NCBI RefSeq assembly: GCF_003334785.1 | Contig: NZ_QOWV01000005.1 | Direction: 5' to 3' (one strand) | Length of the DNA stretch: 64,000 bases | Source of the DNA: Escherichia coli | Lineage (GTDB): Bacteria; Pseudomonadota; Gammaproteobacteria; Enterobacterales; Enterobacteriaceae | Part shown: positions 29,609 to 61,899 of the stretch, in pieces | Position numbering within the stretch: position 1 is the stretch's first letter | Layout of the letters: every line of letters begins with the position of its first letter | Made by a program: the position numbers and the translations under genes | The notes under the pieces: generated by a model | What the model was told of the DNA's origin: nothing | Seen by the model: the letters and a program-made list of their open reading frames with translations, nothing else | The model's database searches: none

Positions 29609-31057
29609 TTATTCTCCATGCTCATTTTTCTTCAGCTTGCGCATCAGAAGCCACATACGTACTGTCCTGACTTTTAAATCTTTATCAGAGACGGATTCCT
29701 TCACCAGGTCAGCATGATGCTGATAGCCATTAAAGAAGACGTTCAGCACAACGGCGCTAAGGGTTGCGAGCATAATGCCGCTATGTAGCAGCGGTTGCAG
29801 TACGGCCGGTAACTTAGAAAAGAAATCGTGAGAGAGCGTCGGAGTCATGCCAACGCCGAGACTGATCGCCACAATATAGAGGTTGTAACGGTTGGTGGTG
29901 TAGTTACAGCGCGACAGAATTCGAATCCCTGTCGCCAGTACCATGCCGAACATCACTAGACCAGCGCCGCCCAGCACAAATTGCGGAATGGAGGCTACCA
30001 GCACCGCCATTTTTGGCACCATGCCAAACAGGATTAATATAATTCCCGAAGAAATACACACCCAGCGGCTATGAACGCGCGTCACGCTAACCAGGCCAAC
30101 GTTTTGAGAAAATGACGTGTGGGGGAAGCTGTTAAACGTGCCGCCTATCATTGTCCCTACGCCATCGACACGCAGCCCGCGAATAATATCGTGCGAAGAG
30201 AGTTTACGACCGACTATTTCACCCAGTGCCAGGAACATCCCCATCGACTCGATAAACACGATGATTAACACGGCAGTCATGGTCAGAATGGAAACGGGAT
30301 CGAAAATCGGCATACCAAACGACATCGGCGTAACAATCGCAAACCATGAAGCATCATGTAGCCCGGATAAATTGACTTCATTCATCATCCACGAAAGTAA
30401 AAAGCCAAATACAATCCCCAGTAATACGGCGACGTTGGACATAAATCCTTTCGCATAGCGAGTAATGAGCAAGATAAAAATTAAGACGGCAAAGGAGATA
30501 CCTAAATAAACGGGATTACCATATTGCGGATTCCCTTTACCTCCGGCGGCCCAGTCAATACCCACCTGAATGATGCTAAGCCCGATAGAAGTAATAACCA
30601 CACCGGTAACCAGTGGCGGGAATAAAGGCATCAAGCGACCGATAAGTGGCGCTAATAATGTGGTGATAAAACCCGCGGCGATAGTGGCACCAAATATCCC
30701 CAGCAGGCCGATATCCGGGTTCATCCCAATGGCTATCATTGGTGTTACAGCAGCAAAGGTCACCGACATAATCACCGGCAGGCGGATCCCCATAAAGCGG
30801 CCGATACCGATACATTGCAATAATGTGACGATCCCGCAGCAAAAGAGATCCGAGCTAATGAGCATCGCAATAGCTTCTTTTGAGAGGCCCAGTCGGTCAC
30901 CAATCATAAGAGGAACAGCGACTGCACCTGCGTACATGACAAGGACGTGTTGCAGACCGAGTATGATCAGCTTTCCTGGTGATAATATGCGGTCAACCTC
31001 ATCAGTTGGGCGGTCTTGCCCAGAAGATGAGGGAAGTTGGGAATCTATGGCGCTCAT
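29609..31057 (-). CDS. uacT: NCS2-family nucleobase permease (uric acid transporter UacT/YgfU), 482 aa
   Basis: Track ORF 29609..31186; start refined to Met 44 (MSAIDSQLPSSSGQDRPTDE...); polytopic membrane protein of the xanthine/uracil permease family. Confidence 0.9.
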   Translation of the reverse strand: MSAIDSQLPSSSGQDRPTDEVDRILSPGKLIILGLQHVLVMYAGAVAVPLMIGDRLGLSKEAIAMLISSDLFCCGIVTLLQCIGIGRFMGIRLPVIMSVTFAAVTPMIAIGMNPDIGLLGIFGATIAAGFITTLLAPLIGRLMPLFPPLVTGVVITSIGLSIIQVGIDWAAGGKGNPQYGNPVYLGISFAVLIFILLITRYAKGFMSNVAVLLGIVFGFLLSWMMNEVNLSGLHDASWFAIVTPMSFGMPIFDPVSILTMTAVLIIVFIESMGMFLALGEIVGRKLSSHDIIRGLRVDGVGTMIGGTFNSFPHTSFSQNVGLVSVTRVHSRWVCISSGIILILFGMVPKMAVLVASIPQFVLGGAGLVMFGMVLATGIRILSRCNYTTNRYNLYIVAISLGVGMTPTLSHDFFSKLPAVLQPLLHSGIMLATLSAVVLNVFFNGYQHHADLVKESVSDKDLKVRTVRMWLLMRKLKKNEHGE

Positions 31058-31492
31058 CAGTGTTTCTCCTTTCGCCCGCCAGAGTAAAAAGCAACCGTTT
31101 ACGTTAATGAAACTGTCTAAACACATGCTCGTGGAGTGCCAGTTTTTGCGAGGAAGGGGAGTTAGAGACAGGAATTGCGGAGGCAATCACATAATCGTGG
31201 TTAAACCACGAAAATGAGAAGAGAACCTGACAATGGAATTATCTGTAATTTTCTCATATTGATATTTCATTAATCATTCTGGCATGTCGCACTCTCGCAT
31301 TTAATCGTTTTTATCTGGATAGCGCTCTTTTGATCGGCAATGTTGAAATAATGAAAGCGGCATAGATTGAGGGGCAATAATTTGAACTCAGTCGCAAAAT
31401 TATAATTAAAACGGTCATGCTACCTAATATATGCCCGTTTATTGCATCGCGAAATTTGAGAAGACATAACTCATTAAATGAAAGGGATGCAA

Positions 31493-59630: not shown

Positions 59631-59640
59631 GATGTTATCC

Positions 59641-61899
59641 TCAAATCAATCCTGCCAGATGGAACTCTTCATATAACCGTTTTGGCGTCAGCGGCAGTGT
59701 ATTGATTGCAACACCGGTAGCCATCTTCACCGCGTTACGAATAGCAGCGGCAACAGGAATTATTGGTGGCTCACCCAGTGACTTATGTCCGTATGCGGAT
59801 TGCGGCTCATTGATTTCGACGAACGCGCTTTCCAGTTGTGGCAGATCCGGCATGGTCGGCATTTTGTAATCCAGCAGATTGGGGTTACGGACCACGCCGC
59901 TTTTAGCATCGATGATCATCTCTTCAAATAGCGCCCAGCCAATGCCCATTCCCATTCCGCCGTGTACCTGACCTTCTGCCAGCAGTGGATTAAGAATATG
60001 CCCTGAATCATGAACGTTGAGGATGCGGTTGATGGTGACTTTGCACAGCGCAATATCGACCGTCAGATCAACAAAGGTACAGCCAAACGCCGGTGGGTTA
60101 GTGGTGGTTTTGATGGAGCTTTCAGCAGAGAGCTGCCCGCCGCGTTCAGGGTGGTAGAAAGCGTCCATCGCCAAATCTTTTAACGACATTAACGGCTCTT
60201 CCGGTCGTTCAACCAGCACGATATGGCCTTTTATCAGGGTCAGATTCATCGCTGACTGATGTAGCATGACTGCGGCGTGAGCGATGATTTTCTCTTTTAA
60301 TAATAGTGCCGCACTGCGCAGCGCAGGCGCGGCAACATAGCTCTGGCGTGAGGCAAATGCGCCGGGATCGAACGGCGTAACGTCGGTATCTTGAGTTGAA
60401 ATAACGCGAACGTCGCTGACCGGAACCCCCACGGTTTCTGCCACCATTTGCGAGAAGACGGTGTCGGCACCCTGACCGATTTCCGTCGCGCCGCTTTGCA
60501 CGTTGATGGTTCCATCCTGATTCATCAGAAGGCGCGCGCCTGCTATTTCTACGCCGACAGGCCAGGTGTTAGAGGTGTAGCTAAAACAGGCGACGCCAAC
60601 GCCGCGGCGCAAATTGCCTTGCTGGTTCTGGCATTCTGCACGGCGTTTTTCCCATTCAAAGATTTTCCGGCCTTTTTCAAGACACTCCGGCAACCCTGCG
60701 CTGTAAATACGTTTGCCCGTGAGCGGATTAGCATCTCCTTCGCGGGCGGCGTTGCGTAAACGAATTTCAACAGGATCAATACCTAACGCTGTCGCGGCGT
60801 CATCAAGCATAGACTCAACGGCAAATACGACTTGTGGCGCGCCATAACCACGCATCGCACCAGCCGAGGGGAGGTTGGTATAGCAGGTCTTTGAACTGTA
60901 AGCGTAGGCACAACGAGGATAAAGGTAAGCGACTTTATTCCCCCCCGCAGAAGCGATGGAGTGCCCGTGAGATGCATAAGCGCCGGTGTTAGACAGAACA
61001 TCCAGACTATAACCTTTCAATGTTCCGTCGCGGTTCACGCCCATTTGCCCGTCAATGGTAAAAGCGTGGCGGGTACGGGTTGCGAGGAAACACTCTTCAC
61101 GGCTAAGGGAAACTTTCACCGGAATGCCGCCAAGCTTGCTGGTCAGGAATGCCGCCATTGGCTCTTCCAGTACATCCTGTTTATTACCAAAACCGCCACC
61201 GACAAATGGTTTGATGACTCGTACGCATGACCAGGGAATATCCAGCGCCTGACCAACCACGCGGCGAACAATGTGCGGGATCTGGGTGCTGGAAACGATG
61301 GTAATTCGCGAGTCATCCTCCATCCACGCCAGCGATGTTACGCTTTCCATGTGACAATGTTGAATAACGGGGGTCTGATAGTGCCCCTGTACCTGGTAGT
61401 CGGCGGCATCGATTGTTTGTTGGACATTACCCGTCGACATCGTGCTTTGTTTCAGTAAATTGCCACCGTTATGGATTGGTGCAGCGTCTTCTGCCAGCGC
61501 CGCTTCTGGCGTGGTGATAACGGGTAATTCTTGCCACTCAATGCTGACCAATTGCGCCGCTTTTTCTGCCGTGAGTTCATCGCGGGCCACGACGATGGCA
61601 ACGGCGTCACCATGATGACGAACATGGCGAGTTAGCAGTGCGCGATCGGCGGTATCGCGCTTGTTTTCGTCAAGTGTCCAGGCATGCCCAGCTGTAGCGA
61701 ATGGAATATCAGGCACATCTTCCCAGGTAAAAATCGCCAGTACGCCCGGCAAACTTCTGGCTTGTTCATCATTAATACTTACGGCATAACCATGTGCGAT
61801 AGGGCTACGTACATATTTCGCATAACACATGCCCGCCATAACATAATCGTCAGTATATCGTGCCCGCCCGGTGACCTTAGCAATGGCATCGACGCGCAT
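59641..61899 (-). CDS. xdhA: xanthine dehydrogenase molybdopterin-binding subunit, 752 aa
   Basis: Track ORF 59641..61938; start refined to Met 14 (MRVDAIAKVTGRARYTDDYVMAGM...). Confidence 0.93.
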   Translation of the reverse strand: MRVDAIAKVTGRARYTDDYVMAGMCYAKYVRSPIAHGYAVSINDEQARSLPGVLAIFTWEDVPDIPFATAGHAWTLDENKRDTADRALLTRHVRHHGDAVAIVVARDELTAEKAAQLVSIEWQELPVITTPEAALAEDAAPIHNGGNLLKQSTMSTGNVQQTIDAADYQVQGHYQTPVIQHCHMESVTSLAWMEDDSRITIVSSTQIPHIVRRVVGQALDIPWSCVRVIKPFVGGGFGNKQDVLEEPMAAFLTSKLGGIPVKVSLSREECFLATRTRHAFTIDGQMGVNRDGTLKGYSLDVLSNTGAYASHGHSIASAGGNKVAYLYPRCAYAYSSKTCYTNLPSAGAMRGYGAPQVVFAVESMLDDAATALGIDPVEIRLRNAAREGDANPLTGKRIYSAGLPECLEKGRKIFEWEKRRAECQNQQGNLRRGVGVACFSYTSNTWPVGVEIAGARLLMNQDGTINVQSGATEIGQGADTVFSQMVAETVGVPVSDVRVISTQDTDVTPFDPGAFASRQSYVAAPALRSAALLLKEKIIAHAAVMLHQSAMNLTLIKGHIVLVERPEEPLMSLKDLAMDAFYHPERGGQLSAESSIKTTTNPPAFGCTFVDLTVDIALCKVTINRILNVHDSGHILNPLLAEGQVHGGMGMGIGWALFEEMIIDAKSGVVRNPNLLDYKMPTMPDLPQLESAFVEINEPQSAYGHKSLGEPPIIPVAAAIRNAVKMATGVAINTLPLTPKRLYEEFHLAGLI

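Follow-up and report, generated by a model that had tools for sequence, protein, structure and literature searches.

What the genes from uacT to xdhA do together, and how their expression is controlled, is the question raised by a block at positions 29609-61899 of the Escherichia coli DNA analysed here (64,000 nucleotides of contig NZ_QOWV01000005.1, hereafter called the window). The first-pass annotation had read the block as a route for anaerobic purine and urate uptake, ring hydroxylation, ring opening and carbamoyl phosphate-linked ATP formation in the manner of clostridial purine fermentation, with one sigma-54 activator. The function of the block is already solved: it is the anaerobic breakdown of urate by E. 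coli to pyruvate, ammonia, CO2 and ATP, published in 2023-2025, and the earlier reading is largely right but rediscovers published biology. Taken as a whole, the block is very probably the purine-to-pyruvate region of E. coli, with the reductive urate (2,8-dioxopurine or yanthine) pathway at its core and with control, which we infer from sequence, by the activator YgeV in the manner of the clostridial regulator DioR.

Gene content and the reductive urate pathway

The block consists of 22 genes, all intact (start and stop codons, no internal stops), and the genes named earlier were confirmed one by one and in that order by their open reading frames, their NCBIfam and Pfam matches and their RefSeq names. 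The number of 24 genes given with them has to be corrected to 22, which is the number of coding sequences from xdhA through uacT in the E. coli K-12 annotation (b2866-b2888 region, same order) and also the number in the earlier list itself; an older paper counts a 23-gene region (Haft and Self 2008). The products of 21 of the 22 genes fall into the expected NCBIfam families above the curated cut-offs, and GhxQ, which has no NCBIfam match, is placed by Pfam PF00860 and the RefSeq name ghxQ only. The block has 99.98 % identity with that of K-12 MG1655 (7 mismatches in 32.3 kb and one 180-bp indel), and the catalytic activities given below are taken from experiments on the K-12 proteins, the window DNA differing at 7 positions in 32 kb. 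The enzyme set of reductive urate degradation (XdhD, YgfM, YgfK, SsnA, HyuA, YgeW, YgeY, plus YgeX) is complete and intact in the window, and the functional clustering of the genes exceeds chance. The genes are as follows, with NCBIfam scores where available.

29609..31057 (-): uacT, urate:H+ symporter, NCS2 family (TIGR03173/TIGR00801 above cut-off; RefSeq name)
31493..33412 (+): ygfT (UacF), Fe-S/FAD oxidoreductase, 'formate-dependent uric acid utilization protein' (NF009451 equivalog, 1505.9 bits, cut-off 1154)
33412..33900 (+): ygfS, 4Fe-4S dicluster ferredoxin-like, HydN-like (matches the N-terminal Fe-S modules of AegA, YgfT and HydN)
33936..35303 (-): ghxQ, guanine/hypoxanthine permease (PF00860, E 1.8e-80; RefSeq name)
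35339..36658 (-): guaD, guanine deaminase (TIGR02967, 631 bits, cut-off 375)
36673..38073 (-): xanQ, xanthine:H+ symporter (TIGR00801, 455 bits; RefSeq name)
38238..41108 (-): xdhD, Mo/Fe-S subunit of urate reductase (TIGR03313, 2122.8 bits, cut-off 1101.9)
41105..41884 (-): ygfM, FAD-binding subunit of XdhD-YgfM (TIGR03312, 489.7 bits, cut-off 241.5)
41935..43263 (-): ssnA, amidohydrolase opening the six-membered ring of reduced 2,8-dioxopurine (TIGR03314/NF005540, 737.9 bits, cut-off 455.5)
43266..46364 (-): ygfK, NAD(P)H:2,8-dioxopurine oxidoreductase (TIGR03315, 1778.7 bits, cut-off 835.3)
46686..47264 (-): mocA (ygfJ), molybdenum cofactor cytidylyltransferase (TIGR03310, 214 bits, cut-off 186)
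47367..48137 (+): yqeC, selenium-dependent Mo-hydroxylase trait marker (TIGR03172, 240.9 bits)
48185..49810 (+): yqeB, XdhC-like domain fused to the TIGR03309 maturation domain (TIGR03309, 417 bits, residues 271-526)
49851..50783 (-): yqeA, carbamate kinase (TIGR00746, 384.5 bits, cut-off 358.25)
50831..52216 (-): hyuA, hydantoinase, ureidomethyl-hydantoin to 2,3-diureidopropionate (TIGR02033, 675.5 bits, cut-off 393.25)
52269..53480 (-): ygeY, M20 amidase removing the second ureido group to give 2,3-diaminopropionate (TIGR03526, 721.6 bits, cut-off 321.5)
53538..54734 (-): ygeX (dpaL), pyridoxal phosphate (PLP)-dependent diaminopropionate ammonia-lyase giving pyruvate (TIGR03528, 651.1 bits, cut-off 532.25)
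54792..55982 (-): ygeW, knotted carbamoyltransferase, phosphorolysis of one ureido group of diureidopropionate (NF005538, 825.2 bits, cut-off 453)
56458..58236 (+): ygeV (also published as isrR), sigma-54 enhancer-binding protein (Pfam and motif check)
58276..58755 (-): xdhC, Fe-S subunit of xanthine dehydrogenase (NF007387, 341.9 bits)
58752..59630 (-): xdhB, FAD subunit of xanthine dehydrogenase (NF007427, 534 bits)
59641..61899 (-): xdhA, Mo subunit of xanthine dehydrogenase (NF007426, 1486 bits; alternative start 61938)

Liu et al. (2025) used isotope tracing in mutants of E. coli and C. sporogenes and rebuilt the route from recombinant E. coli proteins (YgfK, SsnA, HyuA, YgeW, YgeY, YgeX and YqeA). 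In that work 2,8-dioxopurine was the entry intermediate, the recombinant E. coli YgfK was an NADPH-dependent 2,8-dioxopurine reductase with no need for selenate, SsnA and HyuA were the two ring-opening hydrolases, YgeW and YqeA were the ATP-forming pair (ATP was measured), and YgeX connected the pathway to pyruvate, as seen from its activity and mutant phenotype. NADH-dependent reduction of urate to 2,8-dioxopurine ('yanthine') by XdhD-YgfM was described by Li et al. (2025, PMC12507026), who found XdhD to co-purify with a protein of ~30 kDa, putatively YgfM, reproduced the downstream steps, including a coupled YgfK-SsnA assay, and characterized xdhA, xdhD and ygfK deletion mutants; deletion of xdhA blocked xanthine consumption, and urate accumulated when xdhD was deleted. 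They also proposed that Glu606 of XdhD is an active-site residue which orients urate, and residue 606 of XdhD in the window is E. Labelled acetate from urate is lost in E. coli deletion mutants, ygfK and ygfT are strongly induced by urate in E. coli and aegA only modestly (Liu et al.), glucose repression of urate use has been reported, and yqeB is needed for growth of C. difficile on urate. An independent commentary covers both 2025 studies and lists the remaining questions.

These experiments, made on the same E. coli genes, bear out the anaerobic uptake and degradation of purines and urate, ring opening by amidohydrolases, carbamoyl phosphate-linked ATP formation by YgeW and YqeA, and a place in the route, as its last step, for the PLP lyase YgeX; the deletions and mass spectrometry of intermediates that had been proposed as checks were thus already published. 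The chemistry assigned to urate has to be reversed, since XdhD-YgfM does not hydroxylate the ring but dehydroxylates C6, after which YgfK reduces the ring; it is because urate dehydroxylation is followed by this second reduction that the pathway is reductive. YgfK, which had been grouped with XdhD-YgfM as a third subunit, works on its own as a recombinant NAD(P)H-dependent reductase, and its product name in RefSeq is still 'putative selenate reductase subunit'.

In the route established by the published work on these proteins, UacT, XanQ and GhxQ are the permeases annotated for urate, xanthine and guanine/hypoxanthine, respectively, and guanine, hypoxanthine and xanthine are converted to urate by GuaD and XdhABC. 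The C6 oxygen of urate is removed by XdhD-YgfM with NADH to give 2,8-dioxopurine, the ring of which is reduced by YgfK with NAD(P)H and then hydrolysed by SsnA to ureidomethyl-hydantoin. Opening of the hydantoin ring by HyuA gives 2,3-diureidopropionate, from which one ureido group is phosphorolysed by YgeW to carbamoyl phosphate, for use by YqeA in ATP formation, and the remaining one is hydrolysed by YgeY; YgeX then converts 2,3-diaminopropionate to pyruvate and ammonia. The carbamoyltransferase and the carbamate kinase lie in one co-directional string, ygeW-ygeX-ygeY-hyuA-yqeA. Judging from their families and from studies of other species, MocA, YqeB and YqeC would mature the Mo cofactor, possibly selenium-modified, of the two hydroxylases, and YgfT-YgfS would supply electrons from formate. 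All three markers of the selenium-dependent Mo hydroxylase trait, YqeB, YqeC and MocA/YgfJ, score above their cut-offs (YqeB and YqeC were defined as trait markers by Haft and Self 2008), and selD is located outside the window.

The first 20 kb of the block were found in 5375 of 5426 complete E. coli genomes, in 5156 of them with at least 80 % coverage, and are 100 % identical to many complete genomes; the second half is likewise present in 5156 of the 5426 (~95 %) at the same coverage. Beside a YgeV homologue, subsets of the genes are also clustered in Enterobacter, Sedimentibacter and Clostridium and on metagenomic contigs. Not every E. coli has an intact XdhABC, since the annotation of strain ML35 gives xdhC as a pseudogene interrupted by a stop (L001 43748-44227); the xdhC of the window is intact. 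Within the block, ygfS overlaps the stop codon of ygfT by 1 nt, ygfM and xdhD overlap by 4 nt, and the N-terminal half of YqeB is XdhC-related. The end coordinate 61899 corresponds to the K-12 start of xdhA (752 amino acids), the start at 61938 predicted by the prokaryotic genome annotation pipeline gives 765 amino acids, and the alignment with the NCBIfam XdhA model begins at residue 5 of the longer form.

Sigma-54 promoters and a candidate operator of YgeV

Four sigma-54 promoters of the block had been mapped in K-12 by chromatin immunoprecipitation sequencing (ChIP-seq), and all four sites (Bonocora 2015) occur exactly in the window:

61994..62010 (-): xdhABC promoter, CTGGCGTAAATCTTGCC, exact match to site OS29
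56073..56089 (-): ygeW-ygeX-ygeY-hyuA-yqeA promoter, CTGGCACACTTATTGTT, exact match to site OS30
46437..46453 (-): ygfK-ssnA-ygfM-xdhD promoter, GTGGTGCGATTGTTGCT, exact match to site OS31
31430..31446 (+): weak site before ygfT-ygfS, TATGCCCGTTTATTGCA, exact match to site OS32, low motif score

A plain search for the sigma-54 consensus with 2 mismatches gave 48 matches against 44 expected. Because this blind search performed at chance, the four sites rest on the published mapping and on conservation, those of ygeW and ygfK being conserved in Enterobacter sp. Bisph1. A peak of RpoN holoenzyme in the ygeV/ygeW spacer is known from genomic systematic evolution of ligands by exponential enrichment (gSELEX). 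No mapped sigma-54 site was found for uacT, xanQ-guaD-ghxQ, mocA, yqeCB or ygeV.

Upstream of these promoters a common element was found. The 12-mer CTCATATTGATA has exactly three copies in the 64 kb, one upstream of ygfT, one in the ygeW/ygeV spacer and one upstream of xdhA, and it is half of an imperfect palindrome, TATCA-N3-TGATA, with a perfect copy upstream of ygfK. All four mapped sigma-54 promoters of the block have the palindrome TTATCA-N3-TGATAA upstream, mostly as imperfect copies, at distances of 104-305 bp. With at most one mismatch, 7 matches were found in the window against 1.3 expected, and 5 of the 7 fall within the stretches upstream of the four sigma-54 sites, which make up 1400 bp or 2.2 % of the window (binomial 1e-7). 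The candidate operators are:

31252..31264: candidate YgeV/DioR operator TCTCATATTGATA, uacT-ygfT spacer, 172 bp upstream of the ygfT sigma-54 site
46622..46634: candidate operator TATCATTATGATA, perfect palindrome, 175 bp upstream of the ygfK sigma-54 site
56290..56302: candidate operator TCTCATATTGATA, ygeW-ygeV spacer, 207 bp upstream of the ygeW sigma-54 site
56388..56400: another candidate operator in the same spacer, TATCATCATGATC, 58 bp upstream of the ygeV ATG
62108..62141: two candidate operators, TATCACATTGATT and ACTCATATTGATA, upstream of xdhA, centres 21 bp apart, 125 and 104 bp upstream of the sigma-54 site

That one sigma-54 activator, YgeV, is tied to these operons, as first suggested, is supported by published work. 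In YgeV, Pfam gives a weak match to GAF, together with PAS, the AAA+ domain of sigma-54 activators (PF00158, E 2.1e-70) and HTH_8 (E 3e-13), with the Walker A motif GESGTGK at residue 300, GAFTGA at 347 and the helix GIGIATLYRK of a Fis-type helix-turn-helix at 574. Neither Pfam nor the motif check gave a receiver domain, and YgeV therefore probably senses a small molecule directly. Expression of ygfT is reportedly lower in a ygeV mutant, according to a second-hand account, and uacT is a member of the YgeV iModulon. YgeV would bind the TTATCA-N3-TGATAA palindromes, 100-300 bp upstream of the four sigma-54 promoters, and would activate these (xdhABC, ygeW-yqeA, ygfK-xdhD and ygfT-ygfS) on a purine-derived signal.

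The same motif had been predicted in Clostridiales, where Nie et al. (2019) described the activator DioR, of 'unknown' function, with putative upstream activating sequences (UAS) such as ATTTATCATAATGATAAGG and TATTATCATTTTGATAATA preceding dpaL, ygeW-ygfK-ssnA-ygeY, yqeB, pbuX and xdh operons. The E. coli palindromes match these independently predicted sites, and of the seven urate-linked homologues examined six have the helix GIGIATLYRK in common with E. coli YgeV, the one on metagenomic contig L121 having GIGRATLFRK. YgeV is thus probably, judging by these likenesses, the enterobacterial counterpart of DioR. The fuller proposal, that YgeV is the orthologue of DioR, using the same operator across phyla and driving four (with uacT possibly five) sigma-54 urate promoters in response to a purine-derived ligand of its GAF/PAS region, is put forward with moderate confidence. 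The motif itself, predicted in 2019, is not new, and what is added here is modest: its presence on the E. coli promoters and the suggested equivalence of YgeV and DioR, a link to E. coli which was not found in the text or supplement of Nie et al. (2019), as far as these are searchable.

Other genomes were consistent with this picture. A genome scan with YgeV gave, among the matches listed, mostly unrelated activators, the informative loci being L003, L005, L009 and the short L011. In Enterobacter sp. Bisph1 (L003) YgeV is 69 % identical and the spacers have diverged, leaving as conserved islands the sigma-54 sites, the CRP-like site described below and the palindrome, which is perfect upstream of both ygeW and ygfK; the ygfK operator is conserved in position and sequence, and the counterpart of TATCATCATGATC has one mismatch (L003 9919). 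In Sedimentibacter hydroxybenzoicus and Clostridium thailandense, YgeV homologues (~36 % identical) adjoin urate genes, with three perfect palindromes 109-278 bp upstream of the sigma-54 promoter of ygeX or of a PydA-like reductase. Among the 79 YgeV loci of the matches listed, 9 of 11 perfect palindromes lie in the three urate loci of Bisph1, Sedimentibacter and Clostridium. A metagenome search for double palindromes returned 120 loci, six of them with urate-cluster genes, and in these six the palindromes lie ~100-200 bp (in L191 up to ~360 bp) upstream of the sigma-54 promoter of ssnA, ygeX or ygfK. The layout of palindrome upstream of sigma-54 promoter was seen in L003, L005, L009, L094, L095, L121, L124, L144 and L191, and it is this combination that is diagnostic.

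Some of these loci differ in gene content. The Enterobacter locus (L003 1-11776) is a compact variant, in which ygfK is followed by a gene for a 281-amino-acid XdhC-like protein that is without the YqeB-specific TIGR03309 half and then by yqeA-hyuA-ygeY-ygeX-ygeW, with ygeV divergent; xdhABC is not beside ygeV, and the downstream genes have no NCBIfam match. On L121 (~800-1120) a RidA-family gene precedes ygeX under palindrome and sigma-54 promoter, which makes sense because the lyase releases 2-aminoacrylate to be quenched. On L009 (9243-10464) a PydA/DHODH-like Fe-S reductase, the UacX type of Li et al., is found under the same arrangement. The metagenome contigs L107, L134, L139, L148 and L196 carry long tandem arrays of TATCA-N3-TGATA with a spacing of ~26 or 52 bp, unrelated to urate genes.

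Several further elements were noted around the promoters. A perfect TGTGA-N6-TCACA site for CRP and a CRP-like site were read from the sequence:

46516..46531 (-): TGTGAGTTCATTCACA, CRP consensus, lying between operator and sigma-54 promoter of ygfK
56132..56147 (-): TGTGATCAACCCCACA, CRP-like, upstream of the sigma-54 promoter of ygeW

The TGTGA half of the ygfK site is kept in Bisph1, the ygeW site there reads TGTGATAAGGATCACT, and a native Crp site in the ygeW-ygeV spacer is mentioned by Li et al. (2025). These candidate sites fit the reported glucose repression of urate use and would add catabolite control to the candidate activation by YgeV. With GG and GC spaced as in a sigma-54 promoter, the sequence TGGCACTCCACGAGCA (31126-31141, minus strand) is located 69-84 bp upstream of uacT and ~117 bp away from the shared palindrome (31252-31264). 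It could be the fifth promoter of this type, for uacT, although the passages of the ChIP-seq report that were covered do not list it. At xdhA only, TTGATACGTATCAC (62100-62113, minus strand) overlaps the proximal operator and matches the FNR consensus TTGAT-N4-ATCAA in 9 of 10 positions, and this element may serve in anaerobic control. FNR was rejected as the common factor, the other copies of the 12-mer not running into such a site. A perfect palindrome, TATCAAGATGATA, also lies inside the ygeX coding sequence (54446-54458), ~280 nt from its start, and may have arisen by chance or act as a regulatory site within the gene; scanning the Enterobacter locus for palindromes gave no counterpart of it. 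Extension of the regulon to aegA and ybiYW was rejected, as the motif was in neither upstream region, and for aegA this stands alongside its modest induction by urate.

From strands, gaps and hairpins, nine transcription units were inferred:

Units 1-5: xdhABC; ygeV; ygeW-ygeX-ygeY-hyuA-yqeA; yqeC-yqeB; mocA
Units 6-9: ygfK-ssnA-ygfM-xdhD; xanQ-guaD-ghxQ; ygfT-ygfS; uacT

The hairpins are:

58246..58269: strong terminator-like hairpin between convergent ygeV and xdhC
49819..49844: strong terminator-like hairpin between convergent yqeB and yqeA, duplicated in K-12 around a pair of repetitive extragenic palindromic (REP) elements
33907..33930: strong terminator-like hairpin between convergent ygfS and ghxQ
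38213..38228: GC-rich hairpin in the 164-bp gap between xdhD and xanQ

The last hairpin, with its gap, suggests that xanQ-guaD-ghxQ is a separate or attenuated unit. A scan for sigma-70 promoters was uninformative (counts at chance), and the intergenic hairpins alone were used. The yqeB-yqeA spacer (49811-49850) has 40 bp and one terminator hairpin in the window and 220 bp in K-12 and ML35, the extra 180 bp being the REP pair flanked by a duplicated copy of the hairpin, which is also present in the five best E. coli matches. A scan of the whole window at Rfam gathering thresholds gave no riboswitch or other RNA family inside the block. The features outside it were:

5475-5625: Sib antitoxin RNA (Rfam)
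6274-6457: 6S RNA, ssrS (Rfam)
19968-20045: naRNA4, REP-derived (Rfam)
63187-63257: tRNA-Gly, glyU (Rfam)
~26142-27240: prfB, upstream of lysS, given in the matching RefSeq record as a two-piece coding sequence with a programmed frameshift

Alternative readings and points against control by YgeV

The likeness to clostridial purine fermentation, in which the ring would be hydroxylated by Mo enzymes, opened by a xanthinase and degraded via imidazoles to formiminoglycine and glycine, has its basis in the XDH-type enzymes, amidohydrolases and selenium-trait maturation genes that the block has in common with purinolytic clostridia. It is nevertheless extremely improbable, since mutants of E. coli and C. 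sporogenes were searched for the intermediates of this Rabinowitz route and none were detected (Liu et al. 2025), the entry intermediate is 2,8-dioxopurine and not xanthine, and the end product is pyruvate, formed via diaminopropionate. The xanthinase cluster is a distinct one, mainly of environmental Clostridia and Bacilli, and its genes are absent from the present clusters; NCBIfam assigned none of the 22 products to xanthinase-route families, xanthinase reference sequences not having been compared. An older annotation takes YgfK-YgfM-XdhD (YgfN) as a selenate reductase whose neighbours serve selenium handling, and it survives in the RefSeq and NCBIfam names 'putative selenate reductase subunit YgfK', 'Se_sel_red_Mo' and 'selenium metabolism protein SsnA', with a 2002 genetic report, as cited by Haft and Self (2008), behind it. 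As XdhD-YgfM reduces urate (Li et al. 2025), and Haft and Self (2008) themselves read the selenium link as cofactor maturation, this annotation has very little probability of being right.

More weight, although it too is unlikely, belongs to the possibility that the 32 kb are not one unit but a core urate regulon of four sigma-54 operons beside independently controlled salvage and cofactor genes (xanQ-guaD-ghxQ, mocA and yqeCB), the main role of YgeV perhaps being elsewhere, for example in indole-linked virulence. Neither a palindrome nor a sigma-54 site was found for these three units, a hairpin and the 164-bp gap part xdhD from xanQ, Bisph1 retains together only ygfK, the XdhC-like gene, yqeA-ygeW and ygeV, and YgeV/IsrR affects genes of the enterocyte effacement locus (LEE). 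Against a division of the block, its products form one metabolic chain from uptake to pyruvate, partial phylogenetic profiling ties yqeB, yqeC and mocA (ygfJ) to the pathway genes across phyla (Haft and Self 2008), and the predicted DioR regulon of Clostridiales includes yqeB, yqeC-ygfJ, pbuX and xdh genes. Such a division refines the explanation of the block as a purine-to-pyruvate region and does not replace it.

Other observations weigh against the reductive urate block under YgeV/DioR control, or against parts of it. Under the name IsrR, YgeV has also been described in enterohaemorrhagic E. coli as a regulator of virulence genes that is induced by indole, and no report of its binding to the palindrome was found in the literature. 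The enrichment test in E. coli is in part circular, since the regions it scores are those that yielded the motif, and the motif alone is not diagnostic, because 114 of the 120 metagenomic loci with double palindromes have no urate-cluster gene, many being tandem arrays; four of the 114 have a YgeV-like match, which is partial only. The helix GIGIATLYRK is also present in two YgeV-like paralogues without nearby palindromes. At ygfK, the palindrome as TTATCATAATGATAA (46621-46635) also resembles the Fur box ATAATGATAA, and Fur may exert iron control over the Fe-S-rich YgfK operon; as the factor shared by the promoters it was rejected, only the ygfK palindrome being Fur-like. On the side of the pathway, the two biochemical papers disagree on whether YgeW takes the 3-ureido or the 2-ureido group. 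The nearest families of YgeW are ornithine-type carbamoyltransferases, which act on side-chain amines, and those of YgeY are ArgE/DapE-type alpha-N-deacylases, a kinship that gives a hint, and a hint only, towards the order of Liu et al. Selenium dependence has been shown in Clostridium species and not in E. coli, and the role of YgfT-YgfS in formate-dependent urate use is known from second-hand statements.

Relation to known systems

Gut bacteria with this pathway remove urate, which humans cannot degrade, and an engineered E. coli Nissle over-expressing the cluster lowered serum urate in uricase-deficient mice. The pathway itself is published, and the sighting of the block adds nothing to it. 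The operator prediction would give a direct handle on the signal sensed by YgeV and a route to uricolytic probiotics that are inducible rather than promoter-replaced. If YgeV is indeed DioR, there would be one ancient, laterally shared regulon for anaerobic urate catabolism, which could help to explain the strain- and medium-dependent urate use of E. coli.

The closest known system is the E. coli K-12 region itself (Liu et al. 2023, 2025; Li et al. 2025), with the same genes, order and sigma-54 sites and 99.98 % DNA identity, from which the window differs by 7 point differences and by the lack of the 180-bp REP pair between yqeA and yqeB. The urate clusters of C. sporogenes, C. difficile and gut Firmicutes share with it SsnA, HyuA, YgeY, YgeX, a urate Mo hydroxylase and the YqeB/YqeC trait, as well as sigma-54 promoters, a DioR-type activator and the same palindromic operator. 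Unlike E. coli XdhD-YgfM, XdhAC of clostridia lacks an FAD subunit and makes no use of NAD(P)H; in C. difficile the PydA-like UacX stands in place of YgfK, and the hydrolase UacY in place of YgeW and YqeA, hence no ATP is formed at that step. The Rabinowitz 'xanthinase' route of C. cylindrosporum and C. acidurici is likewise anaerobic and selenium-linked, with an XDH-type start, but it hydrolyses xanthine directly, ends in formiminoglycine and glycine, and has other genes and intermediates.

Reductive pyrimidine degradation by PydA, PydB and PydC follows the same logic, in which a flavin/Fe-S reductase dearomatizes a uracil-like ring and a cyclic amidohydrolase and ureido cleavage follow, whereas the substrate of the block is a purine that needs C6 dehydroxylation and has two rings and gives two ureido groups, one of which is phosphorolysed. 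Substrate-level ATP formation by phosphorolysis of a ureido compound and then carbamate kinase resembles the arginine deiminase pathway, although the donor there is citrulline and here 2,3-diureidopropionate, and YgeW is a knotted carbamoyltransferase with its own NCBIfam family. As to control, the DioR regulon (Nie et al. 2019) has a full-length YgeV homologue (~36 % identity) with the helix GIGIATLYRK, UAS such as ATTTATCATAATGATAAGG and, as target operons, dpaL, ygeW-ygfK-ssnA-ygeY, yqeB, pbuX and xdh. The E. coli sites differ from those of DioR in being mostly imperfect, with one perfect half-site, in numbering 1-2 per promoter instead of 2-3, and in being combined with candidate CRP sites.

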